Shown in pieces: positions 25,440-39,471 of a DNA stretch of 64,000 nt; within the stretch, counting starts at the first letter, position 1, and each line of letters opens with the position of its first letter. This DNA is from Candidatus Latescibacterota bacterium (GTDB lineage Bacteria > Latescibacterota > UBA2968 > UBA8231): positions 1,696,001-1,760,000 of the forward strand of contig OY730476.1 in NCBI GenBank assembly GCA_963422735.1. The letters are read 5' to 3'. The notes below the pieces were generated by a model. The model did not search any database. It saw nothing but the letters and a program-made list of their open reading frames with translations, and was not told the origin of the DNA. Both the position numbers and the translations under genes were made by a program.

Positions 25440-26702
25440 CTACGGCTTGTCGATCAGGACGATCCGGTTGGTGTTGGTGCCTTTTTTGCGGTTATCCACG
25501 CCCCAGCAGTTTGCAGTTTTGGTGAACATCTGATCGTTGACCAACACCATCAGCGGCTCGAGTCCGGCCTCTATTGCCGCGGGCGCGACTAGAGTTTCCA
25601 GTAGTACTTCTCCGTTGCGAACCTCGCCCACCTCAAAGGCGACAAAGCCCCCTTTTGCGAGGATTCGGTGTAGCTCCCGGAAGGTGCGGGTTATGGCAGC
25701 TTGCCAGTCGGCTGGTTTTTTTAATTGCCACATAGCCACCTCTTTGGCATCGATGTCGTTAAACCAGCAGCGCAACCAGTTGTCCGCTTGGTAGTTGACG
25801 ATGTCCAAAAAGGGAGGCGAGGTAACGATGAGTTGGACGGATTCACTGGCGATGGCAGGGGTGTTGTCGGACGAGCCGATTACGAGCAGCGGAGTACTAG
25901 CCGCCAGTGTATCCAAGTCGTGCGTTTGCAGCTTGCCTAGTAGGGACCGCGTTTTGCGAAGGATGATGGCCTTTAGGTCGCGCTCCGGGGGTGTCTGCTG
26001 GCGTCTGGTGTTGATTTTTTTTTGCGATTCGATGGACACCGCCTGATTGGGCGGCAGCGTATATACAGAGAAAAACCCCGGTGAGTGCCCGGTCAGGCGG
26101 TTGGTCGCCACCATCTGAATCCACGCATCAGCGCGATCTAATGTCCCCTCTTGGCGGCGCGTGAGAAGGTAGGAGCGTAGGTTGGCGATTTGGCGGAGCG
26201 TGTTGGGGTGATAAAAAACGAGAAGATCGTCCCAGACCTCGATCGCTTTGTCGAGATCGAGCGAGGTCAAGCGCTTTTCTACCTCTGTCGATTCGGGTGG
26301 GTCCAAGCGAGGGCCGACCAGCCGCTCACTCAGGGGATTTATGTCGCAGCCGATGGGGCGGCGGCCCAACAGCGCCGCTTCGAGCACGGTAGTGCCGCGC
26401 CCCATGAACGGGTCGTACACCGCGTCTTTGGGCTGGGTCAGTCGGCTGATGAAAAAGCGCGGCAACTGTGGCTTGAAACAGGCGCGATAGGAGACCTCGT
26501 GGAGCGAATGAGCAGCGCGCTGCTTGGAGGTCCAGAACTCGTTGACGTATACCGGAATGGAAATGGTTGGATCGGGAAAATCGAGGATGTGCGTCTCTTT
26601 GCCAAAATCTGCAAAGGCCCTGATCTCGGCGGCGAATTCCTTGGCGTTTAGGGGCCGCTGTCGAGAGGTCTGGTGGGCGAATAATTCGAGTTGTGTAGTC
26701 AC
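25440..26702 (-). CDS. Site-specific amino-DNA methyltransferase (probably N4-cytosine)
   Basis: Motif I DPFMGRGTT precedes motif IV VTSPPF; EL.R.L..GG. Confidence 0.88.
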   Translation of the reverse strand: MTTQLELFAHQTSRQRPLNAKEFAAEIRAFADFGKETHILDFPDPTISIPVYVNEFWTSKQRAAHSLHEVSYRACFKPQLPRFFISRLTQPKDAVYDPFMGRGTTVLEAALLGRRPIGCDINPLSERLVGPRLDPPESTEVEKRLTSLDLDKAIEVWDDLLVFYHPNTLRQIANLRSYLLTRRQEGTLDRADAWIQMVATNRLTGHSPGFFSVYTLPPNQAVSIESQKKINTRRQQTPPERDLKAIILRKTRSLLGKLQTHDLDTLAASTPLLVIGSSDNTPAIASESVQLIVTSPPFLDIVNYQADNWLRCWFNDIDAKEVAMWQLKKPADWQAAITRTFRELHRILAKGGFVAFEVGEVRNGEVLLETLVAPAAIEAGLEPLMVLVNDQMFTKTANCWGVDNRKKGTNTNRIVLIDKP

Positions 26703-27001
26703 TAGATACTCATAAGCAAAGTGAGTGCCTTAGCGCGGCTTATCTTCGATGCTGAACTAAGTTCGCCCTGATGCCACCACGCCCGTACGATGTCCACGGG
26801 AATTTTCCAGTATGGTATGGAGGGAAAGCACTGGATGTCAGATACAATATAACCAGCTATATGGTCTAGTTTTTGCAAGAAGCCATCCTCGTCAAAGTGC
26901 CTACCTGATCCAACCATATAGCTGGGACAGAAATAGATGCCACCTTTAGACACGCTGCGAACATTCCACTTTAAGAAACCATTAGCAGTATCCACGTTCA
27001 T
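26702..27001 (-). pseudogene. Lower-GC ORF coupled to the methyltransferase; possible truncated restriction endonuclease
   Basis: TAG/GTG 1-nt overlap; AT-richer; W.VRS..GG.YFCPS.MVGSGR.FD pattern; too short for a complete nuclease. Confidence 0.4.
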
Positions 27002-27802: not shown

Positions 27803-28006
27803 CTTCAATTATCGGGGACAAGCCGGGTGGAGTGGGCGACCTACTTGCTTCCGGTGCGGCTGCGGATAGGAGGATCGTGGCGTTTGACTTTCTGCTTGAA
27901 AATATCTTGAATCCCTTAACGTACGAGCGTACTCTGCGGACAAATTGCGCGTTTTCGCCGGGTAGCCCGCGTGGTAAAAAGTTAGCTACAAGGAGGATTG
28001 AGTTCC

Positions 28007-28843
28007 ATGAGCGAGTCGAAGAGCGATGCGAGATACACGATGGGACGCACCCAAGGGGAGGAGGAGCGTCTGATTCAGCAGTCGCAGTTGTACGATGCTG
28101 TGACGCGGCGTTTCCTCAAAGAGGCGGGCCTCAGCAGCGGGATGAAGGTACTCGATATTGGCAGCGGTGCCGGGGATGTGGCTCTGACAGCCGCCGAGTT
28201 GGTCGGTCCAGAAGGGATTGTCGTGGGCGTGGATGTAAATGCGGCGATTCTCGAAACGGCGCAGGCACGGGCGCAGGAAGCCGGGTTTGCCAACGTCGAA
28301 TTCATCGCGGGGGATGCCCGGACTCTGGACCTCGGAAACGATTTCGACGCCCTGATCGGTCGGCTGGTCCTCATGTATATGGCCGATCCCACCGACGCCC
28401 TAAAACAGCTAGCGACCCGCTTGCGCCCGGGGGGGATCGCGGCCTTTCAGGAGGCTGATTTCACGCCCTATCGGTGGCTTACTCATCCAGACACGCCCTT
28501 GGCGAACCAGCTAATCGAGTGGGCTCTCGGAGTATTCGAGCGCTCCGGGGCGCATATTGGCATGGGCCTCGACCTGTACCGCGCTTTTGTCGAGGCTGGT
28601 TTGCCCGAGCCTGCCATGCACTTCGAGTCTCCGGTCGGCGGTCCAAAGATGTGGGCGGGGTACCAATTCGTTGTCAACAGCTTTCGCAGTATGCTCCCGC
28701 TCATAGAAGAGTACGGGATTGCGACGGCAGAAGAGGTCGATGTGGAAACCCTCGCCGAGCGGGTTCGGCGAGAAGTGGTCGCGGCGAAACGCCCGTTTGC
28801 CCTGCCGCCCCATGTAACCGCTTGGGCACAGCTTGCGAGCTAA
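28007..28843 (+). CDS. Class I SAM-dependent methyltransferase
   Basis: VLDIGSGAG, GVD, FD, LRPGG; AGGAGG RBS. Confidence 0.9.
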   Translation: MSESKSDARYTMGRTQGEEERLIQQSQLYDAVTRRFLKEAGLSSGMKVLDIGSGAGDVALTAAELVGPEGIVVGVDVNAAILETAQARAQEAGFANVEFIAGDARTLDLGNDFDALIGRLVLMYMADPTDALKQLATRLRPGGIAAFQEADFTPYRWLTHPDTPLANQLIEWALGVFERSGAHIGMGLDLYRAFVEAGLPEPAMHFESPVGGPKMWAGYQFVVNSFRSMLPLIEEYGIATAEEVDVETLAERVRREVVAAKRPFALPPHVTAWAQLAS

Positions 28844-28847
28844 AGCA

Positions 28848-29924
28848 ATGAGCAAGTGGAAAATCGCCGGAATCAACTTCGACCATCTGCACATGGGCGA
28901 CAATCTGCGCATGGCCTTTGAGCACGCAGACGTCGAGATCGTCGGCATTTGCGACGAGCAGCCCGAGCGCATGAGGCAGGCGTGTGAGGATTTCGCCATT
29001 CCAGCCGACCGGGTTTTCAGCGACTACCGGGCGTGTTTGGAAAAGACCCGGCCGGACATCGTCCTTTTGTGCCCGGCCACGGCCGAACACGGGGAGTGGA
29101 CCGAAAAGGTCGCGCCTTTTGGCGTGCATATTATCATGGAAAAACCCTTTGCCGCCACCCTCGCCGAGGCGGACCGGATGCAGCGGGCCATGGAAGGGAC
29201 GGGCAAACTGTTGGCGATCAACTGGCCGCTGGCTTGGTATCCGCCGCACCGCACCGCACGGCGGCTCATCACTGCCGGCGAGATCGGCGAGGTGATCGAA
29301 GTCCACTACTACGACGGCAACCGAGGACCGCTGTGGCACCTCGCCGACAAAGTGGAGCGCACGGCCGATGGTGTCGAGCGCGAAAAGCCCACGAGTTGGT
29401 TTTACAAAAAGGCAACGGGCGGCGGCTCCCTGTTAGATTACCTAGGCTACGGCACCACATTGGGTGCCTGGTACATGGACGGCCGGGCACCGATTGAGGT
29501 GACAGCGACCGTAGATCAGCCCCAAGGGCTCGAAGTAGATGAGCACTGCATTGCGGTGGCGCGCTACGAGCGAGGCCTGTCGAAATTCGAGACGCGCTGG
29601 GGCACCTTTACCGACCCTTGGACCCTGCAACCCCAGCCCAAGTGCGGCTTCGTCATCGTCGGCAGCAAGGGCACGATCAGCTCCTACGACTACGAGGAGG
29701 TAATCCGCGTACAGACGCGGGCGCAACCAGCAGTCGAGCAACGGCCCGTAGATGTGCTCGAACCGCCTTTCCAGAATCCCATCCAGTACGTGATTCACTG
29801 TATCGAAGAGGGCCAACCCATTGAGGGACCGCTCTCGCCGGCCCTGTGCCGCATCGGGCAACAGATCGTCGATACCGCTTATCAGAGCGCCGCGCAGAAG
29901 CGCACGTTGCCCCTGGTTCAATAG
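28848..29924 (+). CDS. Gfo/Idh/MocA oxidoreductase
   Basis: MEKP, GGGSLLDY.GY. Confidence 0.88.
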   Translation: MSKWKIAGINFDHLHMGDNLRMAFEHADVEIVGICDEQPERMRQACEDFAIPADRVFSDYRACLEKTRPDIVLLCPATAEHGEWTEKVAPFGVHIIMEKPFAATLAEADRMQRAMEGTGKLLAINWPLAWYPPHRTARRLITAGEIGEVIEVHYYDGNRGPLWHLADKVERTADGVEREKPTSWFYKKATGGGSLLDYLGYGTTLGAWYMDGRAPIEVTATVDQPQGLEVDEHCIAVARYERGLSKFETRWGTFTDPWTLQPQPKCGFVIVGSKGTISSYDYEEVIRVQTRAQPAVEQRPVDVLEPPFQNPIQYVIHCIEEGQPIEGPLSPALCRIGQQIVDTAYQSAAQKRTLPLVQ

Positions 29925-29927
29925 CTT

Positions 29928-31043
29928 ATGGCAGAAAGCCAAGATAGCGGCTACGGCCGAGGCAAAACCGGGTCGGAAGCTGAAGTAGCAGCTCCAGATT
30001 TGCCCTACCAGCCGCGCGATCCGGTGACCTATCGTCCGCAGATCGGCTTGATTGGCTGCGGAGGCATATCCGAGATGCACTTGCGGGCCTATAAAAACGC
30101 CGGCTATGAGGTCGCGGCCCTGTGCAGCCGAGATCGGGGGCGCGTCGAGCAGCGGCGGGAATTCTACCCGGCGGCCGACACATACCTCGACTATCGGGAG
30201 CTGCTCGCCCGCGACGATGTCGAGGTGGTGGACATTACGCCCCATCCGCAGGAGCGGCTGCCGATTCTCGAAGCGGCCATTGACGCTGGCAAACACGTCC
30301 TGAGCCAGAAGCCTTTTGTGCTCGACTTGGATGTGGGCGAACAACTCATTGCGCAGGCCGAGCGACGCGGCTTGCAACTAGCCGTCAACCAGAATGGCCG
30401 TTGGGCACCGCATTTTAGCTACATGCGCCACGCTGTGGCCGCTGGCTTAGTCGGCCAAGTGCAGAGCGTTGAGTTCGCCGTGCATTGGGACCACAACTGG
30501 ATTGCTGGCTCCGCTTTTGACGCGGTGGACGATCTGGTGCTCTATGACTTTGGGATGCACTGGTTCGATATGGCGGTGGTGCTCTTAGGCAGCGAAAAGC
30601 CGCAAAGGGTCCACGCTTCCGCTCGGCACGCAGCCGGCCAAGAGGCCAAACCGCCGCTTTTGGCCCAAGCGGCGATTGAGTGCGCGGGGGCGCAGGCGAC
30701 AATCTTCTTTAACGGCAACACTCGCCAGGGACAACAAGACCACACTTATCTCGTCGGCACGGAGGGCGCAATAGGGGCCAGTGGTGTAGATCTGACCGCG
30801 CAGGAAGTCATCTTATACACCGCAGCGGGTGTGGCCCGGCCGCAGCTTACAGGGACGTGGTTTGAGCAAGGTTTTCACGGGACCATGGCCGAACTGCTCT
30901 GCGCCGTCGAGGAAGGCCGCGAACCTTCTAACAGCGCCCGCGCCAATCTCGCAAGCTTGGCGCTGTGCTTTGCGGTCGTGGCGAGCGCCCGCAGTGGAAA
31001 GCCAGTAGTGCCGGGGACGGTGCGACGATTGCCCGGCCGTTAA
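29928..31043 (+). CDS. Gfo/Idh/MocA oxidoreductase
   Basis: IGLIGCGGI, GKHVLSQKP, D.GMHWFD. Confidence 0.9.
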   Translation: MAESQDSGYGRGKTGSEAEVAAPDLPYQPRDPVTYRPQIGLIGCGGISEMHLRAYKNAGYEVAALCSRDRGRVEQRREFYPAADTYLDYRELLARDDVEVVDITPHPQERLPILEAAIDAGKHVLSQKPFVLDLDVGEQLIAQAERRGLQLAVNQNGRWAPHFSYMRHAVAAGLVGQVQSVEFAVHWDHNWIAGSAFDAVDDLVLYDFGMHWFDMAVVLLGSEKPQRVHASARHAAGQEAKPPLLAQAAIECAGAQATIFFNGNTRQGQQDHTYLVGTEGAIGASGVDLTAQEVILYTAAGVARPQLTGTWFEQGFHGTMAELLCAVEEGREPSNSARANLASLALCFAVVASARSGKPVVPGTVRRLPGR

Positions 31044-31091
31044 GCCGCCTACAATTTTGCCGCCAGACGGCAATCCTCTTGGAGGTTTTCT

Positions 31092-31940
31092 ATGGATTCG
31101 ACCTGCCTGCAACACCCCTTGACCAAGGAGGAACGCCGCCAATTTGAAAAAGATGGCTTCTTCATCGTCCGCGATGTGCTGCCCTTGGATTTGGTAGATA
31201 AGCTCATTCCCATCGTCGATCGCCTCGATGCCGAGTACCGGCTGCAAAAAGGGCTGGAAAAGCACCAGATGCACAACTTGTTCGACTTTATCGGCAAAGA
31301 TGAACTCTTTCTGGCGTTGCTCGACTGGCCAAAGACATTCGCCAAGGTCTTTGGGATTTTGGGCTGGCACATTCAGCTCTACCACTCGCACTTGATCGTT
31401 ACTCCGCCTTTAGACGGCGTCGTGCCCAAACGCAAGCGGCTAGGCTGGCATCAAGACAGCGGGCGGCTCAACATCGACTTGGAGACTCAGCCCCGGCCGA
31501 GGGTCTCGCTCAAGGTGGCGTACTTTCTCACGGACTGCACCGAGACCAATCGCGGCAATTTCCACGCCGTACCCGGCTCGCATCTGAAAAGCGAGGTCGA
31601 GATGCCAGCGGACGAGGACTTAGATCCAGCGGGCGCAGTGCCGATCCAAGTGGCGGCGGGAGACGCGGTATTTTTTGACCGACGGATCTGGCATGCGGCC
31701 GGCCACAACTTTTCGCCCGAGGCGCGCAAGGCACTGTTTTACGGCTATAGCTACCGCTGGTTGCGGCCGCGCGACGACATGACGGTGGAGCACCTGATGG
31801 ACCGCTGCGATCCAATCCGACAGCAGCTACTCGGTGCCGGTCCGAGCGGCGGGCACGGCTACACCTCGCCCAAAGAAGAAGACGTGCCGCTGAGAGAGTG
31901 GATTCGCGAGCATCTGGGTGGAGAAGCGGTGGTGCAATAA
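31092..31940 (+). CDS. PhyH-family Fe(II)/2OG dioxygenase
   Basis: WHQD, VPGSH, GDAVFFDRRIWH. Confidence 0.9.
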   Translation: MDSTCLQHPLTKEERRQFEKDGFFIVRDVLPLDLVDKLIPIVDRLDAEYRLQKGLEKHQMHNLFDFIGKDELFLALLDWPKTFAKVFGILGWHIQLYHSHLIVTPPLDGVVPKRKRLGWHQDSGRLNIDLETQPRPRVSLKVAYFLTDCTETNRGNFHAVPGSHLKSEVEMPADEDLDPAGAVPIQVAAGDAVFFDRRIWHAAGHNFSPEARKALFYGYSYRWLRPRDDMTVEHLMDRCDPIRQQLLGAGPSGGHGYTSPKEEDVPLREWIREHLGGEAVVQ

Positions 31941-31942
31941 AA

Positions 31943-34900
31943 TTAGGCTGCCGTCAGGCCCACGAAGAGCCGGCTGGACAGGCTGGTCAGCGGCTCGACC
32001 TCGCCGCGCACAGCCGCCCTAGCAAAGACTACGCCTGGCTGCGCGGCCCTAGCGGCCCGACCCAAAATGTGGTAATCGGCGCGACCGGGCTGTTGGGCCG
32101 CTTCCCGCGCCTCGGTCCAGCCTTGGTTGGTAGCGGCCAAGCCCCATAAAGCACGCGGTGCCCGCACCTTGGTCTCCTCGACCGATAGGCCGTCGCGCCA
32201 ACAACCGCGCTGGGCGAATAGACCGCCGTCTTCCCGATAGATCAGCCCGCCGCCCACGTATTGGATCAACTGCTGTTGGCTGCCCCGCGCCCCCGATAGC
32301 GTCAACAAGGCTAGGGTCCCCAAGTCGTTGTCGTCGAAATCGGCCTGCCGGTAGAAAGCCGCCACTAACTCGTCGCTGTACATTTGCCACTCGTCCCAAT
32401 TGATCTCTTTGGGTTGCTCAGGCCACTCCCTGCTCGAACCCAAGAAGGGATTGAAGGAGGCCCCCGACTGCTTGCAGACCTCAAAGCCGCGCCGCGTTAG
32501 CTGGTCGAGCACTTCCAGTGCTCGCTCCCAACCCTCGCGCTGCAGCACCTGAGCTAGCAAGCGGTTGAGTGTGCGCTTGGTGAATAGCCGGCTGCCATCC
32601 ACGGCCCCTTTGGTCAGCTCCTCCACTTCAGCGCGACCTTCCTCGGTGCGGCACAGCCGAGCCAAGCCCCAGCTCATGCCGTGATAGTTGTCGGCTATGT
32701 AGCGCCATACATCCGCATCGCGCTGTATGTGTCCGGCCACCGACAGCGCGGTTCCGGCTTCGGCCTGAGCTTCTTCAGTGAGGGGCAAAAACACCTCGAT
32801 GTGGTCGCCGTCGAAATCTAGCTCCATCAGTCGGCAAACGCGCGGATGGACGCGCACGGCAGCCCCGGCCAAACGCTGCGGACGAAAGGCCACCACCGCA
32901 GTGGGCGGCACGTGGCCCTCGTCCACCAGCACCCGCTGGGCACTGTACAGCAGCACCCACGAGCGTGCCATAATCGCGTCTAGAACCTCAGCCGCTCGGG
33001 CTGAACGCCGCGCACGACCCATCTCCCGCTCTACCTGAGGCCCAAACAAAGCCCAAGCCATTTCCTCGGGCAGGCCCACTTGGTCGAGATTCAGTTCAAA
33101 GCCCGAAGCGAGCGCGGCTCGGCCACTGAACAGCGGTCTGGCCTCGAAGTGAAGGAACTCCGGGCGCAACAACGCGGCAAAAAAATCCTCCACCCGTTGG
33201 GCCACCTGGGCCACTGCGGGGCCGGTTAGGGCCTCGGGTGCATCGCTATCGACGACGCGTTGCAAGCGCTCATTGGCTTCGACCAAATCCTCGAAGCAGG
33301 CTCGGATTGGATCGAACTCGGTCCTCGCGGGCAAGGCAACGGGAGACCCCACCGTCCCGATCTGGTGCCCCGGGGCCCACGGGTGCGGCACTAGCTGGGC
33401 CAAGGTCAGCCCCTCGGGCTCGGCAAAGGAAAAGCGCAACTCCGCGCCCGCCAATTTGGCCCGTATCCCGGCCATACCCAACAACTGCTGCAACAAGGCA
33501 AAGCGCGGGGACGGGGCTGGGGACGGGGACACCGGGCCGGTGGTTAGGCGCTGGCCCAGCGTATTGGCGTCGGGCCGCTCAGCTGCGGCCGTGTTGAACA
33601 AAGCGTGGATATTGGCTACGGCCCCGGCCTCACACAAAGCTCCGTAGGCCATCATATCGAGCTCTGGGCCGCCGGCCCTTGCCACCGCGGTTTCCAAGCG
33701 TTCGGCCGCGGTGTGGGTCAGGCGGCCCCAGTACACCCAACCCACGGTACTGCGATAGGGCAGCTTTGCGCCTTTGAGGGTCAGTTGCTCCATGCCGTCT
33801 TCGGGCAGTCCCGCCTCGACTAGACGCGCTTTCAACATCTCTTCGCTGGGTGCCTCGAAAGGCGGCACCACCGCCGGAGTCTCTTCGGCCCGGGCAATGC
33901 GACCCATGACCGCCTCGCGCTGCTGGCCGAAATTGAGCCGCGAGACCATACTGGTGGGACTGAAGATGAGCTCTACCAGCGCCCCATCGGGCAACTGCGG
34001 CATGTCGGCGTCGGGCAGGATGCGGGTCACCACCCCTTTGGCACCGTGGCGATTGCCCATGCGGTCTCCCACCCCGACTGCGGCGGGAAAATTCATCCGC
34101 GCCGCAGCCGACTCGCTGATGACCAAGCCATCCTCAAACGTGTCCCCGTCCCACATGATGAAGGCGGTCAGCAGATTGTACCCACCCCAAAAGTCGGGGG
34201 CTTCGGGCTCGTATCCCGTCTGCACTAGAGCTGGCTCGGGTTTGTTGCCCTTAGAGGCCAAGCACTGGTCGTACTGCTGGCGGAACCAACCCGTAGAGTG
34301 GACCGGAGCCGCTGTATCGGCGGCACTCGTCCACTGGCGCATCATGTTGATGCCCATCAGGGCGCGATTGGTATCGTCGTGTTCGAGAAAGGGCACCATG
34401 GAGGCCGAAAAGCCCAAGATGCTGTCGGGCGCATTGTCGATCCGTTCGAGCTTGCCGTCGCGGATGCGAGCCCCGCGGGCCACTTCGAGCACGCGGCCAA
34501 TATTGGGGCCCTCAGGGGTGCAGTAGGGGCACACTAGGCCGTATTGGCTGTAGGGGAAAACGCCCTGATCGTCAAAAGGCTCGACGACAACGGGGATCAA
34601 AGTCAGCCGCCGCAGATGGGTATAGCGGTCGAGCCAGTTGGTCGCCTGTAGGTACTGCGAGGTTTCCCCCAAGTGGAAGTCGCGCATCCAGGCGTCCAGC
34701 GGCAGCCAGTTGCGCACCAAGTCGCCGTCCCAAGCCAACTGTTCGGGGGCCACCTCCAACCTTTGGTCAATAAAGTCGTAGAGCTGCTCACCCACGCACA
34801 GAATCCGCGCTTGTTCGAGCGCACGCCGGTCGGGATAGGGAACCACGACCCGGTAGTTGCCTTCAATGTGGAAAAGGCCGTCTCGGTCGGGCCGCGGCAA

Positions 34901-35092
34901 ATCCCGGTACTCAACCTCGACCGAGGCATGGCCGAGCCCCAAACTCAGTTTAACGGAAAAAGTATAAGGGTCCTGTTGTTCGACTCGATAATCGGCCAGC
35001 GGCAAGCGCTCGCCCAAAAGCCGGGGCAGTCGCTGGTGGACGAAAAGGTCAAAGGACTCCCGGTGCCAAGGTACGTCGAGATTCAATGTCAT
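31943..35092 (-). CDS. Minimal single-chain RNA polymerase beta-beta' fusion protein (1049 aa)
   Basis: Collinear beta motifs (TPEGPNIG, PFLEHDD.NRALMG.NM.RQ, FED...ISE, GD.M..RHG.KG, SR.N.GQ) then beta' motifs (clamp helices, SGR, GLP..MA..LF.P, DFDGD, SGARGS, region H). GGAGG RBS; ATGA overlap with the sigma stop. Confidence 0.92.
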   Translation of the reverse strand: MTLNLDVPWHRESFDLFVHQRLPRLLGERLPLADYRVEQQDPYTFSVKLSLGLGHASVEVEYRDLPRPDRDGLFHIEGNYRVVVPYPDRRALEQARILCVGEQLYDFIDQRLEVAPEQLAWDGDLVRNWLPLDAWMRDFHLGETSQYLQATNWLDRYTHLRRLTLIPVVVEPFDDQGVFPYSQYGLVCPYCTPEGPNIGRVLEVARGARIRDGKLERIDNAPDSILGFSASMVPFLEHDDTNRALMGINMMRQWTSAADTAAPVHSTGWFRQQYDQCLASKGNKPEPALVQTGYEPEAPDFWGGYNLLTAFIMWDGDTFEDGLVISESAAARMNFPAAVGVGDRMGNRHGAKGVVTRILPDADMPQLPDGALVELIFSPTSMVSRLNFGQQREAVMGRIARAEETPAVVPPFEAPSEEMLKARLVEAGLPEDGMEQLTLKGAKLPYRSTVGWVYWGRLTHTAAERLETAVARAGGPELDMMAYGALCEAGAVANIHALFNTAAAERPDANTLGQRLTTGPVSPSPAPSPRFALLQQLLGMAGIRAKLAGAELRFSFAEPEGLTLAQLVPHPWAPGHQIGTVGSPVALPARTEFDPIRACFEDLVEANERLQRVVDSDAPEALTGPAVAQVAQRVEDFFAALLRPEFLHFEARPLFSGRAALASGFELNLDQVGLPEEMAWALFGPQVEREMGRARRSARAAEVLDAIMARSWVLLYSAQRVLVDEGHVPPTAVVAFRPQRLAGAAVRVHPRVCRLMELDFDGDHIEVFLPLTEEAQAEAGTALSVAGHIQRDADVWRYIADNYHGMSWGLARLCRTEEGRAEVEELTKGAVDGSRLFTKRTLNRLLAQVLQREGWERALEVLDQLTRRGFEVCKQSGASFNPFLGSSREWPEQPKEINWDEWQMYSDELVAAFYRQADFDDNDLGTLALLTLSGARGSQQQLIQYVGGGLIYREDGGLFAQRGCWRDGLSVEETKVRAPRALWGLAATNQGWTEAREAAQQPGRADYHILGRAARAAQPGVVFARAAVRGEVEPLTSLSSRLFVGLTAA

Positions 35093-35688
35093 TGATGTTC
35101 CTCCGGGTTATTAATGGCCTGCCAAGCCCGTGAGATCTGGCGGCGGCCGTGGTGCAGACGCGACTTTACGGTGCCTTCGGGAATGCCCAGTCGCTCGGCC
35201 GCATCTCGCACTTCGACTTGGGCGTCGTAGATCAGACGGAAAACCTCGCGCTTGTCCTCGGACAGTGCCTGTACTTGTCGCCGCAGCCAGCGCTGCTGGT
35301 CGGCCCGTTCCACCTCGGCGTCGGGGCGCTCAGACGCGGCCTCAATCATCCATTCGGGCACTTGGTGCGTTTCCTTCTCCACGGTTTCAGACAGCATTTC
35401 CAGCCGTTGCTCCCGCCGCCTTTGCACAGTGCGCAGGTGAGTTAGAGAAAGATGAGTAGCAATGCGGAACAGCCAGCCAGCCGCAGAGCCTCGACCGCTC
35501 CATTGGCCAGCTCGGTTCCACACCCGCAAGAAAACCTCCTGCACCACGTCGTTGGTACTCGCATCATCGCGGACGATGCGGCGCACGTGGTGGTGGATCT
35601 GCTCCCGATAGCGCTCAAAGAACTGCTCAAACGCGCGGGCATCGCGTTCTTTTATTTGCACTATGAGTTGTGAGTCCGGTATCTGCAT
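35089..35688 (-). CDS. ECF-family sigma-70 factor (199 aa)
   Basis: ATG at 35688 after GGAGG; region 2 DVVQEVFLRVW..WLFRIA; region 4 AAERLGIPEGTVKSRL. Confidence 0.93.
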   Translation of the reverse strand: MQIPDSQLIVQIKERDARAFEQFFERYREQIHHHVRRIVRDDASTNDVVQEVFLRVWNRAGQWSGRGSAAGWLFRIATHLSLTHLRTVQRRREQRLEMLSETVEKETHQVPEWMIEAASERPDAEVERADQQRWLRRQVQALSEDKREVFRLIYDAQVEVRDAAERLGIPEGTVKSRLHHGRRQISRAWQAINNPEEHQ

Positions 35689-35708
35689 CGAGGCCCTCCG
35701 CAGATAAA

Positions 35709-35734
35709 GACGCCGCCCGGAAAGTACAGGTTCA
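35709..35734 (-). promoter_or_regulatory. Putative ECF-sigma (autoregulatory) promoter TGAACC-N16-CGTC
   Basis: Minus strand TGAACC tgtactttccgggcgg CGTCT, 20 nt before the sigma ATG; matches the general ECF AAC/CGT pattern and spacing. Confidence 0.65.
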
Positions 35735-35881
35735 AGGACGAAGATGAAAAAGCCCGGAAACCTCATTGGAGACTGGCTTTCTCCCCGAATTGACTCACTA
35801 GTCGAGCACGGTATCTTACCACCCACCGCCTGAAGACCAGCCTCAACCCTTACAGACGCTCCTGCGCTAGATCGAGACCCC

Positions 35882-36530
35882 ATGAGCCTAACACCAGCCC
35901 AACTCAACCAGTTCCACCGCGACGGCTATATCATCGTCTCCGATCTGTTCACGGCCGACGAGATGGATGCCGCCCTAGCGGCGATGGAACAGATTTTCTA
36001 CGGCCAATCCTTCCAGCAATGGTTGGCCGTTTGCGACCGCGGTGAAGCGGCCAGAGTCTCGGACGGCTTTACCACCACGCACGACCACTCGGAGGGGCGC
36101 TCGCAATTTCCCGTGGGTGCGCCGGCCTTGGACCGGCTAATAGAAAAAGAGACCTACCTCGACATTTTTGAGCAATGCTTAGGCGCAAAAGCTAGCTACT
36201 GCAATGCCCACCTCTTTATGCGCTCGGGGCCTACTGACAAGCGCCATCCCCACAACCCTTGGGAGGGCTACCACATGGACCACTACACTAATTGCCTGCT
36301 GCCGCCCCACGACCAGACAGGCCGGTTTGACTACGTCAATTCGGGGGTGTACCTGCACGATGTCGGCGACGACGGTGCCCCCATGCTGGTCATCCCCGGC
36401 TCGCACAAAGTAGCCGGTCCCGCTTTTGTGCGAGCCTTTGCCCAAGGCAACGCTGCGGGTGGGTCCTTCAAAGACCTGTGCCAAGTCACCGAACTAGCCG
36501 CCCCGGTCCCCGCCACCGCCCGGCGCGGGA
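35882..36530 (+). pseudogene. PhyH-family dioxygenase, 3'-truncated
   Basis: FHRDGY, YHMD, IPGSH; ends at RRGS before the distal His. Confidence 0.75.
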
Positions 36531-36534
36531 GTCT

Positions 36535-37344
36535 ATGGCGGCCATCCGCCGCCTGCTAAGTCACCTCGATCCAGCGGCCTTGCGGGGCCGCCTCACGGCC
36601 ATCCCGGTAGTCAACGAGGCGGCCTATTGGCGCGGCCAGCGCACGGCCGAAGATGGGCTGGACTTGGCCCGCACCTGCCCAGGTCGGCCCGATGGCTCGA
36701 TTACCGAGCGCACAGCCCACGCCGTCAGCCAAGAAATCCGCCGGGCCGACTATCTCATCGACCTGCACAGCGGCGGGCTAGTCATGGAATTCTACCCTAC
36801 CGCGGGGTACACCCTGCATCCCGATAAAGCCATCCTCGAGGTGCAACGGCGCATGGCCCGAGCGCTGAATATGCCCATCATCTGGGGCACTTCGGCCCGG
36901 CTCGACGGACGCACGCTTTCGGTAGCCCGCGACGCCAACGTGCCAGCCATCTACGCCGAGTGGATGGGGGGTGGCACGTGCGATCCCCAGGGCGTGGATG
37001 CTTATTTCGAGGGCTGCTTGAACATCTTGGCCGAACTAGATCTGATCGACCGCACCCTGCCGCCCCTGCACACCGAGTACACCGTGGAGGACGACCGCGA
37101 CAACGCTGGCCACGTGCAGCTCAATTACCCAGCGCCCTTTGCTGGCTATTTTGAACCCCAAGTGACATTGAAAGCACCCGTGCAACCGGGCGATGTGATC
37201 GGCACGGTGGTAGATCATCTGGGGCAGCGGCGCGAGGAAGTGGTATCGACCCAAGCGGGCTTGATCCTGTGTCTGCGGGTCTTCAACCGCGTCCACCAAG
37301 GCGACAGTTTGGCCGCGGTTTTAGAACTCGACCCTTCCCAATAA
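36535..37344 (+). pseudogene. Succinylglutamate desuccinylase/aspartoacylase family, 5'-truncated
   Basis: IPVVN, DL.R.CPG, IDLHSGG, C-terminal biotinyl-like hairpin; lacks the N-terminal HG.E motif. Confidence 0.75.
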
Positions 37345-37612
37345 CCCCCTTTTCTGCGCCGCTAGACCCGCGCTGTTTCCAGCCCTCGCAAGTAGAAGAC
37401 CGGATAAATGCGCTTTCCAAAGATGTCCGACGGCTTACTGTGGCGCAGACTCACTGGACCCTAACTTCGGCTACGAAGGATGAGAATCTCTACCGAATCC
37501 AGACGTATTCGCACTCAAAGAAGCCATTGATGGGCGATCGATATTCGAGAGACTCTGGATCGTTGACAACGCGGTTCGGGCACAAATGATTTTTGGGGTC
37601 GGACACCGGTTT

Positions 37613-38473
37613 TTATACGCTGGCCACCTTGCTGCAATCTAGCGAAAACATGAGCGGCAAACTGCGATCTGGAATTTCCCAGTACCCATCGGCACCTTGC
37701 ACCATACACGCGAATCTGCGATAAGAGCAGTAAGGAAACTCCTCTAAGCGGTCGATCGCCAGACCAGCGGATGCAGCCGCTGTGACAAATTCCCCCATGT
37801 GGTGAGACCACTGGTATGTAGTCGTGTTCACCAGACGACCGCCCTCACCTGTGTAAGATTCCTCGGCCGTGCATAATTCGGGCGTCTCCTCGTGGAAATA
37901 GCTGTCGTTGAGTGAAAATGAACCGCTCGCGGCATCATAGGTAAGCATGTCGAGCACTGGATGTCCATCGACGACGAAAACTCGGCCGCGAAGTTTCAAC
38001 ATTGCGCTCGCAATCGAAAACCAGCGCTGGAGATCCGGTATCCAGCAGAACACGCCGTGGGAAGCAAAGACCAGATCGAATGATTGGCGCTCCAAGCGAT
38101 CGCCCACAGAGTACACGTTAGCACAGTGGAACTCGGCACTCAATCCAGTCTCTTCGGCCAGTTCGCGTGCTTTCTCAATTGCTGCGTCGGAAAAGTCCAC
38201 GCCCGTCACGATCCCACCCATTCTACTGAGAGAAAGGGAATCGAGGCCGAAGTGGCATTGCAGGTGGAGAATTCGCTTTCCGGCGACATCGCCAAGCGCT
38301 TTGATCTCGACCGGTCCCAAGGTGCATTGACCAGAGAGAAATCCCAACACGTCGTAAAACTTCGTCCCCAAGTGGAGTCCGACTCTTTCGTTCCAATTCT
38401 CGCGATTGGCGCGAAAGTAGGTTTCGTCAAAGGGCTTCAATCTTGAAACCTTTCGCGTATCCCCGGCGCACAT
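37613..38473 (-). CDS. Class I SAM-dependent methyltransferase
   Basis: N...WNER, LHLQCHFGLD, GVDFS, WIPDL. Start uncertain. Confidence 0.88.
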   Translation of the reverse strand: MCAGDTRKVSRLKPFDETYFRANRENWNERVGLHLGTKFYDVLGFLSGQCTLGPVEIKALGDVAGKRILHLQCHFGLDSLSLSRMGGIVTGVDFSDAAIEKARELAEETGLSAEFHCANVYSVGDRLERQSFDLVFASHGVFCWIPDLQRWFSIASAMLKLRGRVFVVDGHPVLDMLTYDAASGSFSLNDSYFHEETPELCTAEESYTGEGGRLVNTTTYQWSHHMGEFVTAAASAGLAIDRLEEFPYCSYRRFACMVQGADGYWEIPDRSLPLMFSLDCSKVASV

Positions 38474-38499
38474 CGTCTATCACCCTGTCCGAGAACATT

Positions 38500-39471
38500 T
38501 TAGGCGCAGACGGCCGCATCGGTGCTCCAGCGGTTGAAGGGGGTATGCTCCTCTTGGGCCAGCCGGTCGCGGGTGTCGCGCCAGAGCTTTTCCCACGCTA
38601 CGGGATCGCGCAAGACGCTTGCGGGGTTAGCTCTGCTGCGGGCGGCAAAGCCGGGGAAGAGGTCGCGGCCCGTGGGCTGGCCGACTGGATTGTAGCGCAA
38701 ATCAAAGCTCCAGCGCACATCGTCGCTGGCGTTGACCAGCGAGCCGTGGATGGTGTGGCGAGTGAGGAAGAGCACATCGCCGGGCTGCATGGGCACCGGC
38801 AGGGCCGCGTCCATATCCATAAGCAGCTCCGGGATCCACAGACCCCCCGGTCCCCCCGGACAGTGCGTGTGCAGCCCCCGGCGGTGGCTACGGGGCATAA
38901 TCTGCAGACAGCCGTTTTCGATCGTCGCCTCATTGAGCGGAAACCACACCGTCAAGACCTCCGAGTCGTCGGCTTCGGGCAGGACTACGCCGTTGTCTTG
39001 GTGCCAGTTGGTGGCACTGACTAGGGCTTGGCCGTTGTGGTCTTTGGGCACTAGGCGTTCGGGCGGCTTGAGGCGCACGTGCTGGACGGGGTTGGACCAG
39101 ATCTCGGGACCGACGATGGACTCGACCGCATCGAGGAGGTCGGGGTCGGTAATGCAGCGAAAGACGGCTGGCCCGGCCCAGAAGGGAGTGTCGGCCTCGA
39201 TGCCCGTCTGGGGCAGGGAGAAGTCGAAGTACTGGGCGTGGATCTGGCCGCTATCGACGACGATTTGAGTCAGGCGCTTGCCAAAGGGCAGGTCATCGTA
39301 CGTGGACGCGATCCGGCCGGCTTGGTAGAGCGCACAAGCGAGCTTGTCGAGGACGCTGTGGTATTCGTCGATAATGGGCTGGATGACCTCGTCCACGTCG
39401 AGCATCCCCCTGACTAGTAAGTAGCCTTCTTCGTCAAAGTGTGCGAGTTGTTCGTCCGTCAAGCATGGCAT
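38500..39471 (-). CDS. PhyH-family Fe(II)/2OG dioxygenase
   Basis: WHQD, ENGCL, PGDVLF..HTIH.S, RWSFDLRY. Confidence 0.9.
   Translation of the reverse strand: MPCLTDEQLAHFDEEGYLLVRGMLDVDEVIQPIIDEYHSVLDKLACALYQAGRIASTYDDLPFGKRLTQIVVDSGQIHAQYFDFSLPQTGIEADTPFWAGPAVFRCITDPDLLDAVESIVGPEIWSNPVQHVRLKPPERLVPKDHNGQALVSATNWHQDNGVVLPEADDSEVLTVWFPLNEATIENGCLQIMPRSHRRGLHTHCPGGPGGLWIPELLMDMDAALPVPMQPGDVLFLTRHTIHGSLVNASDDVRWSFDLRYNPVGQPTGRDLFPGFAARSRANPASVLRDPVAWEKLWRDTRDRLAQEEHTPFNRWSTDAAVCA

Follow-up and report, generated by a model that had tools for sequence, protein, structure and literature searches.

A σ-linked single-chain β::β′ fusion in Latescibacterota: a predicted mini RNA polymerase with a nucleotide site remodelled in one sub-clade

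A stretch of 64,000 nucleotides from a Candidatus Latescibacterota bacterium (contig OY730476.1, positions 1,696,001 to 1,760,000; here, the window) carries on its minus strand a gene for a σ factor of the extracytoplasmic function (ECF) type, followed directly by a gene for a fusion of the RNA polymerase subunits β and β′. The fusion, P0001, is a protein of 1049 residues encoded by one open reading frame (ORF) at 31943..35092, in which a minimal RpoB-like half is joined to a minimal RpoC-like half. An earlier note on this DNA had described a remodelled polymerase active site at 31955-32960, a stretch that corresponds to residues 711-1046 of the fusion. The motifs that it quoted, ELDFDGD, LYSAQRVL (residues 715-722, 32927-32950), RDGLSVEE (966-973), and APRALWGLA (978-986), are found by motif search where the note had placed them, and all map to this single ORF. 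The features of the locus are as follows, with residues of the fusion numbered from its ATG (NTP, nucleoside triphosphate; pLDDT, predicted local distance difference test).

35709..35734, minus strand: ECF-type promoter-like element, TGAACC-N14-GGCGTC, about 20 nucleotides upstream of the σ ATG.
35089..35688, minus strand: gene for a dedicated ECF-type σ factor, probably of 199 residues from the ATG at 35688 (Pfam, NCBIfam, alignment of starts).
31943..35092, minus strand: gene for the single-chain β::β′ fusion, 1049 residues; its ATG overlaps the σ stop codon by 4 nucleotides (ATGA).
33491..35092, minus strand: β-derived half, residues 1-534 (BLASTP against the genome's own RpoB; VIA-align against β/Rpb2 chains).
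34034..34069, minus strand: GDRMGNRHGAKG, residues 342-353, β barrel motif with two NTP-contacting basic residues (motif search).
33170..33322, minus strand: coiled coil, residues 591-641, aligned with the β′ clamp helices (BLASTP alignment; model helices 591-615 and 620-641).
32936..32947, minus strand: YSAQ, residues 716-719, where NRAP is expected; S717 is at the position of β′ R425 (motif search, alignments).
32912..32932, minus strand: loop insertion specific to a sub-clade, residues 721-727 (gaps at 723-724 in 62-64 of 71 rows; pLDDT below 50).
32804..32824, minus strand: ELDFDGD, residues 757-763, which holds the Mg-binding Asp triad and has E at the position of β′ N458 (motif search, alignments).
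32096..32182, minus strand: complete bridge helix, residues 971-999 (RpoC alignment, AlphaFold2 model).
31955..32068, minus strand: region-H-like C-terminal helices, residues 1009-1046, directly after the bridge helix (alignment, model).

The homology of the fusion to β and β′ is far above chance. A phmmer search of PDB sequences finds bacterial β chains at 3.6e-42 and β′ chains at 5.5e-18, and Pfam recognizes Rpb2 domains 3 and 6 in the first half of the chain and Rpb1 domain 2 in the second (RNA_pol_Rpb2_6, PF00562, 2.5e-29; RNA_pol_Rpb1_2, PF00623, 7.3e-11). When compared by BLASTP with the genome's own RpoB, the fusion aligns in four colinear blocks: residues 108-210 (the Rif/fork segment), 210-268 (region E), 267-327 (region F to FED), and 339-534 (GDR..HGAKG through the β C-terminus), which correspond to RpoB 432-538, 602-660, 715-781, and 1037-1249, respectively. 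Ahead of these lies a remnant of the β N-terminus. The N-terminal 135 residues gave Atlas leads to Rpb2_1 and Rpb2_2 only (score 0.91; 124-142 of 256 features shared), in agreement with the structural alignment, which begins at the β N-terminus. The β-side motifs FED (319-321), GDR (342-344), HGAKG (349-353), SRL (384-386), and RLTH (457-460) are all present, so FED, HGAKG, SR, and RLTH are indeed kept, as the earlier note had read them. The residues aligned with the rifampicin pocket, 143-166 (about 34595-34666), deviate in several places from those of the RpoB of this genome.

The genome's own RpoC aligns with the fusion in one colinear block, in which residues 600-995 correspond to RpoC 265-772. 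Within it, the clamp-helix segment (residues 600-637) pairs residue by residue with RpoC 265-303, LYSAQR pairs with LLNRAP, and MELDFDGD pairs with FNADFDGD. A 15-residue likeness to the β′ N-terminus (E 0.58) was dismissed as chance. The fusion thus has what defines a two-barrel polymerase core: a β-type double-psi barrel with GDK..RHG.KG and an ED pair, and a β′-type barrel with the DxDGD triad (DFDGD, 759-763) and a bridge helix. It is a member of the two-barrel polymerase superfamily, derived from bacterial β and β′. It is not, however, an RpoB or RpoC equivalog by the NCBIfam cut-offs, since it scores 158 against a cut-off of 801 with the rpoB model and 76.5 against 963 with the rpoC model, and matches both in pieces only.

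Much of the two parent subunits has been removed. The N-terminal 430 residues of β are reduced to about 107, the β flap (RpoB 782-1036, about 255 residues) to about 11, and the N-terminal 264 residues of β′ to about 60; C-terminal to the bridge helix, after residue 995, the fusion has 54 residues versus about 595 in RpoC. Gone are the flap, the lobes, the Zn finger, the trigger loop, and the jaw, so that two hallmarks of cellular RpoB/RpoC, the flap with its flap-tip helix and the trigger loop (region G), are both missing. Retained are both barrels, the Rif/fork and hybrid-binding segments, the switch/region C segment, the funnel, the clamp helices, and the bridge helix.

An AlphaFold2 model built from a 90-sequence alignment agrees with this layout (pLDDT 93.6; predicted template-modelling score 0.91), and the only segment with a pLDDT below 50 is the insertion at residues 721-727. 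The model contains the coiled coil at 591-641 and a bridge helix of 29 residues, 971-999, followed by short helices at 1009-1015, 1019-1029, and 1038-1044, which are probably region H, as judged by a motif of that region. No helical hairpin that could serve as a trigger loop is present in the model. The absence of the trigger loop and jaw, claimed in the earlier note, is therefore borne out; the bridge helix that it had described is likewise there, but in full and not as a start only. Foldseek and VIA-align match the model from residue 1 to 466-550 with second-largest subunits of RNA polymerases (Z 28-31; root-mean-square deviation 2.3-3.0 Å across 438-523 residues), and Foldseek returns β′ chains as well. 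The short path from bridge helix to region H is common to all members of a 71-row family alignment, and the loss of trigger loop, flap, lobe, and jaw is a family-wide trait.

The gene is accessory to canonical rpoB and rpoC. The genome, a single contig of 4.95 Mb, carries rpoB (an open frame of 1271 residues) and rpoC (1367 residues) about 1.56 Mb away, and it has the fusion in single copy. A word-indexed search found 753 relatives, of which the named ones are 'hypothetical protein' entries of Latescibacteria, Poribacteria, or Gemmatimonadota bins. Representatives clustered at 50% identity, searched exhaustively, gave 319 proteins at E <=1e-30, many of 1000-1070 residues, with ordinary β subunits among the weaker matches. 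The family consists of hundreds of unnamed proteins of Latescibacterota, Poribacteria, and some Chloroflexota. The fusion is present in 54 of 151 sampled genomes of the window's phylum (14 of 21 in its own genus, 20 of 20 in another), and several closed genomes in this sample have no match to it. The samples from the phyla of the Poribacteria and Caldilineaceae loci yielded it in 20 of 101 and 2 of 201 genomes, respectively. A scan of genome contigs was dominated by ordinary rpoBC loci, with 5 of 80 loci belonging to the family.

Several relatives depart from the usual form. One (G446:C2:821104-824204) is split into two matches by two in-frame TGA codons in its β′ half. Two others (G002 and G009) match in two pieces, 1-666 and about 652-1007, inside a single open frame, and their β/β′ junction may contain an insertion or a duplicated domain. 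Several viral contigs in IMG/VR (L148, L166, L197, L201, and similar) align from residue ~136 to ~990 with 21-26% identity over 3.7-4.6 kb, and represent phage β and β′ homologues arranged head to tail, or possibly fused. Four contigs of 151-290 nucleotides inside the gene, with unrelated A/T-rich ends and from a run guessed to be RNA, were not used as evidence.

A patchy distribution within the genus and across phyla, a compact two-gene cassette with variable flanks, and a type II methyltransferase with a restriction-enzyme fragment 5 kb away could all suggest that an integrated phage, plasmid, or other mobile element brought its own RNA polymerase to the locus. This origin is very unlikely, however. 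None of the best 80 of 116 IMG/VR relatives spans residues 1-1049 (best E 3e-19 among the matches listed), none of 67 PLSDB plasmid records spans at least 80% of the fusion, PHROGs returns only generic RNA polymerase β matches for it, and PADLOC returns none. In addition, the neighbours are metabolic (PhyH, GFO/IDH/MocA, methyltransferases, topoisomerase), and the G+C content is unremarkable.

The partner gene encodes a σ factor with regions 2 and 4 only and about 200 residues, the composition of ECF (group 4) factors. Pfam identifies Sigma70_r2 (3.8e-15) and Sigma70_r4_2 (5.3e-13), and the score against the ECF superfamily model TIGR02937 is 97 bits (cut-off 42.9). The longest ORF, 35089..35907, would give 272 residues, but it is probably too long because the starts of relatives align with the ATG at 35688; the N-terminal extension was therefore dropped. 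The 4-nucleotide ATGA in which σ stop and fusion ATG overlap indicates that the fusion is, by sequence, translationally coupled to the σ gene.

This linkage extends through the family. The σ gene lies directly upstream in 4/4 named loci with upstream DNA (two Latescibacterota, one Poribacteria, one Caldilineaceae), in 23 of 30 loci of the phylum sample, the window included, and in 6/6 further loci. Five of the 30 have one gene between σ and fusion: in three an ATP-binding cassette (ABC) exporter of 597-620 residues, in one an ORF of 381 residues, while the fifth locus lies at a contig end. The exporters are half-size, occur on the same strand in one genus (L118, L119, and L123; genomes G068, G083, and G049), and, like the 381-residue ORF of G033 (L122), which has no Pfam hit, could be cargo of the module.

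The remaining two of the 30 loci, both in the window's genus, have no σ gene within about 6 kb. Genome G148 (L101/L120) has an intact fusion of 1047 residues, and in G142 (L116/L121) the fusion is truncated at its N-terminus; neither closed genome has a cognate σ above 100 bits anywhere. A nucleoside hydrolase gene lies close to the fusion in G148, versus 4.5 kb away in the window, which suggests a deletion. Three of three closed genomes that lack the fusion also have no σ above 100 bits. In these searches, then, the σ factor is never found without the polymerase, while the polymerase is occasionally found without σ.

In the window genome the cognate σ scores 304 bits and the next ECF factor 85.6. 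The σ family comprises 507 matches at E <=1e-20, with about 50% identity across groups and a mean column identity of 61%. The linker between regions 2 and 4 contains a nearly invariant VP.WM..(8 residues)..P motif (residues 111-113 and 122), of which P111, W113, and P122 are at least 90% conserved among 90 sequences, which is unusual for a linker; the motif could be the contact that makes up for the lost flap. In holoenzymes, σ region 2 usually docks on the β′ clamp helices, and the fusion has this coiled coil.

A conserved promoter-like element, ECF-like in form, precedes the σ gene. ECF promoters have GAAC at -35 and a CGTC-like sequence at -10, with about 17 bp between these cores. The sequence TGAAC[CT]-N14-(C)GG[TC]GTC is found upstream of σ across phyla, ending 5-22 nucleotides before the start codon, and the pattern TGAAC[CT]-N13-15-G[GC][CTA]GTC occurs upstream of 21 of 31 σ frames and in 6 of 8 loci of another set. 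The 10 misses among the 31 include the window's own locus, where a genome scan finds the element; thus, some of them are failures of the script. Judged by its sequence and position, the promoter looks autoregulatory.

Residues of the active site were counted in 71 full-length members. The Asp triad, which the earlier note had reported as kept, is nearly invariant: D759 is present in 67 rows, D761 in 69, and D763 in 68, and the full triad is found in 82 of 90 rows of one alignment and 101 of 112 of another. At the position of β′ N458 (residue 757) there are 37 N, 18 D, 10 E, and 3 Q; at that of R425 (residue 717) 55 R and 8 S; at 719, 57 P and 6 Q; at 344, 59 K and 10 R; and at 352, 64 K. The family consensus is therefore the canonical NADFDGD / NRAP / GDK. 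R348, G350, and G342 are invariant, R243, N249, R252, Q253, D321, and R385 nearly so, and more than 100 positions along the catalytic cleft are conserved at >=90%.

The window protein departs from this consensus, with S717 and E757 at the R425 and N458 positions, as the earlier note had read them. The note had left to a comparison of homologues whether these changes are shared, and across the family they are not. In the 90-row alignment, R717 is missing from each of the 16 sequences nearest the window protein, and E757 is present in 15; in a FastTree phylogeny, midpoint-rooted for drawing only, these 16 rows form one clade with 100% local support, nested among lineages with canonical sites. 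R425S, P427Q, and N458E are derived changes of this one sub-clade, not features of the family. Among 49 cluster representatives of the window's lineage (identity >=75%), S717 is found in 48, and Q719, E757, the three Asp residues, and K352 are each found in all 49. Position 344 is K in 29 and R in 20 of these 49, so the change from GDK to GDR, which the note had listed, is a neutral polymorphism. The remodelled nucleotide site is thus real and sub-clade-level, on top of a larger finding, the σ-linked mini-polymerase.

One explanation for an altered catalytic neighbourhood, for one truncated relative (G142), and for one relative with in-frame stops (G446) would be that the gene is a decaying paralogue without function. 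This is highly improbable. Comparison of the window gene with nine close relatives gives ratios of nonsynonymous to synonymous substitution rates (dN/dS) of 0.159-0.194, which indicates maintenance by purifying selection; the frame of 1049 residues is intact, the AlphaFold2 model is confident, and the changed residues are fixed in 48-49 of the 49 lineage members.

The changed residues bear directly on the choice of sugar. β′ R425 and N458 are described as universally conserved contacts of the 2'-OH, and R425 as the major determinant of sugar selectivity (PMC7862312). As given in the same source, R425K alone lowered selectivity 17-25-fold in the Escherichia coli enzyme, N458S changed it 4-5-fold or less, and active-site closure through the trigger loop contributes 5-10-fold. 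In the window protein R425 is replaced by S, N458 by E, and trigger-loop Gln929 is absent; since all three 2'-OH elements are missing, weak discrimination between NTPs and deoxynucleoside triphosphates (dNTPs) is predicted, if the enzyme is active.

These losses could also mean that the protein is a polymerase of another kind, one that has lost the sugar gate and polymerizes dNTPs into DNA or mixed chains, or produces short primers or oligonucleotides, and no long σ-directed transcripts. The size of the R425K effect is in line with this, as is the lack of a visible downstream regulon (see below), and the PolD enzymes (PMC4996933, PMC6355029), as presented there, demonstrate that two-barrel enzymes can be DNA polymerases. 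However, the strict coupling to σ and the promoter-like element favour promoter-directed initiation over primer making, the regions that bind the RNA/DNA hybrid are conserved as in RNA polymerases, and no conserved primase, helicase, or replication gene adjoins the fusion in the loci compared. A non-transcriptional polymerase is thus considered unlikely.

Comparison with known systems helps to place the pair. With bacterial RpoB/RpoC and an ECF σ it shares homology in sequence and fold, the GDK..RHG.KG and DFDGD barrels, the bridge helix, clamp helices, and switch/region C segment, and a σ with regions 2 and 4 and a -35/-10 type promoter. It differs from them in having 1049 residues in one chain instead of about 2640 in β plus β′, in the lack of an α or ω gene in the cassette, in being accessory and patchily distributed, and, in the window sub-clade, in the replacement of R425 and N458. 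Full-length RpoB-RpoC fusions (NF007172/NF011417, about 2850-2890 residues) also have β then β′ in one chain, but those are complete housekeeping enzymes, and the window protein scores only 148 and 135 bits against the cut-offs of 5372 and 4632 for these two models.

Closer in size is YonO of the Bacillus subtilis prophage SPβ, which is described as a single chain of about 100 kDa without a trigger loop, phage-encoded and with only a very remote relationship to multisubunit enzymes, and as fast, highly processive, less accurate, and without RNA cleavage (PMC5467207). The fusion is likewise a single polypeptide without a trigger loop. Unlike YonO, set apart here by description, it is chromosomal, paired with σ, and matches bacterial β at 1e-42, and by its context (metabolic flanks, IMG/VR, PHROGs) it is not a YonO-type phage enzyme. 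YonO also bears on the view in the earlier note that processive transcription is doubtful after loss of the trigger loop. This doubt finds no support: the loss is family-wide and occurs with mostly canonical sites, and since YonO is highly processive without a trigger loop, such a loss alone gives no ground to question processivity.

The nearest analogy in design is Orf6 of the yeast linear plasmid pGKL2, described as an Rpb2::Rpb1 fusion of 982 residues in which about half of each parent is deleted (PMC2919709). It has the same order, second-largest then largest subunit, and a similar size, but, as compared by description, Orf6 is derived from eukaryotes, resides on a cytoplasmic plasmid, and has no σ factor. 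A search of the literature found no description of a short β::β′ fusion linked to σ; a mention in Iyer and Aravind 2012 (J Struct Biol) is possible. RpoB, RpoC, and Rpb2 are absent from the main text of the ECF re-classification paper (PMC7826278), and RNA_pol_Rpb1/Rpb2 Pfam names are absent from one of its supplements.

Starting from the established architecture, residue conservation, selection, σ linkage, and promoter motif, we infer how the module would bind σ, carry out catalysis, choose its substrates, and find its targets. The best reading, held at a probability of roughly one half, is that the fusion is a σ-directed, trigger-loop-independent mini-polymerase with relaxed sugar selectivity. 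The clamp helices align with those of RpoC and the regulatory, proofreading, and assembly parts are lost, and for these reasons the pair is read as a self-contained transcription module. It would be an accessory two-gene unit, an ECF-type σ plus a single-chain mini RNA polymerase, whose operon would be driven by its own ECF-type promoter. Joining β to β′ in one chain would replace assembly by the α subunit, σ would presumably dock on the retained clamp helices, and nucleotides would be added by two-metal chemistry without a trigger loop, as by YonO. In the window sub-clade, where the carboxylates are kept and E757 would add a fourth, an active polymerase of low fidelity that discriminates weakly between NTPs and dNTPs would be expected.

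Several observations weigh against this picture. The flap normally positions σ region 4, and without it the reading of a -35/-10 promoter is unexplained. In the window genome the strict promoter pattern, searched as a regular expression, has one hit, the operon itself, against about 3.3 expected from first-order Markov sequences, and a looser pattern has 8 against about 8. With hits no higher than expected, no regulon is visible beyond the operon. An autoregulated ECF promoter would fit equally well if σ used the host core enzyme. The intact fusion of G148 persists in a genome without a cognate σ. Finally, sister lines of the sub-clade have lost an Asp (6 of 16 rows: DxDxN in four, S or Y instead of the first Asp in two); K352 is also replaced there, again in 6 of 16, and the remaining cleft residues are invariant. 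At one of the six further loci, L131, the polymerase reads SFDGD and the σ gene is still retained directly upstream. The losses of Asp and K352 hint that selection in this sub-clade may act on something other than catalysis. For the sub-clade, the dNTP use and the structural role raised in the note are still plausible.

A rival reading is that the sub-clade protein is a pseudo-polymerase with a regulatory role, which would bind σ through the clamp helices and/or bind nucleic acid and so buffer or redirect a σ that works with the host core. Behind an autoregulated ECF promoter, a σ gene and then a partner gene is the usual layout of σ and anti-σ, and here the gene in the anti-σ slot is the fusion itself. 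Pfam scans of the neighbours detect no anti-σ domain; some ECF groups, indeed, have no anti-σ factor. The single strict promoter copy and the persistence of σ beside SFDGD at L131 fit a regulator as well, and the sub-clade changes cluster on the contacts to NTP and metal (R717, N757, K352, a single Asp). A regulator is nonetheless rather unlikely. The window lineage keeps all three Asp residues and K352 in every row, the active site is fully canonical in most family members, the cleft is highly conserved, and 1049 residues would be an extravagant size for a σ binder. Moreover, all six rows that have lost an Asp carry E or D at 757, so that three carboxylates are always left, and E757 may stand in as a metal ligand in these lines. 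Together, the missing flap, the lack of visible targets, the Asp losses, and the option of the host core keep both the regulatory and the non-transcriptional interpretations alive beside the mini-polymerase.

The mini-polymerase reading also has a bolder form. With 1049 residues plus a σ of 199, the pair might be the smallest known σ-dependent polymerase of cellular type, and an orthogonal one. In the sub-clade E757 would permit the loss of an Asp, and with the 2'-OH sensors gone dNTPs or non-ribo substrates would be accepted, which would make the enzyme a σ-directed, promoter-specific synthase of DNA or mixed polymers. This is offered as a long shot.

The cassette is flanked at 27998-31940 and 35882-39471 by dense small-molecule tailoring genes, among them three PhyH-type dioxygenases, two GFO/IDH/MocA oxidoreductases, two S-adenosylmethionine-dependent methyltransferases, and an AstE/AspA-like deacylase. 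The PhyH neighbours are common to the closest named locus, L008, and absent at more distant loci. Farther out, at 25440-27001 on the minus strand, a gene for a type II DNA methyltransferase of 420 residues (PADLOC MTase_II, 2e-194) is adjoined by an ORF of 99 residues, whose only match to a type II restriction enzyme model is with its C-terminal half (69-152 of 160). A restriction-modification system with a shortened nuclease is a possible reading of this pair.

If the pair works as proposed, it would be a minimal two-barrel polymerase that uses a σ factor without a flap, a trigger loop, or α. This would bear on how σ is positioned, on catalysis without a trigger loop, and on how polymerases were built up in evolution, and would give synthetic biology a compact pair for orthogonal transcription, about 3.8 kb long. 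The sub-clade is a natural experiment on sugar selection, in which relatives with the canonical site, with R425S/N458E, and with a single Asp lost can be compared. A second polymerase, so far unstudied, would then be present in Latescibacterota and Poribacteria, two uncultured groups whose record names often point to a host.

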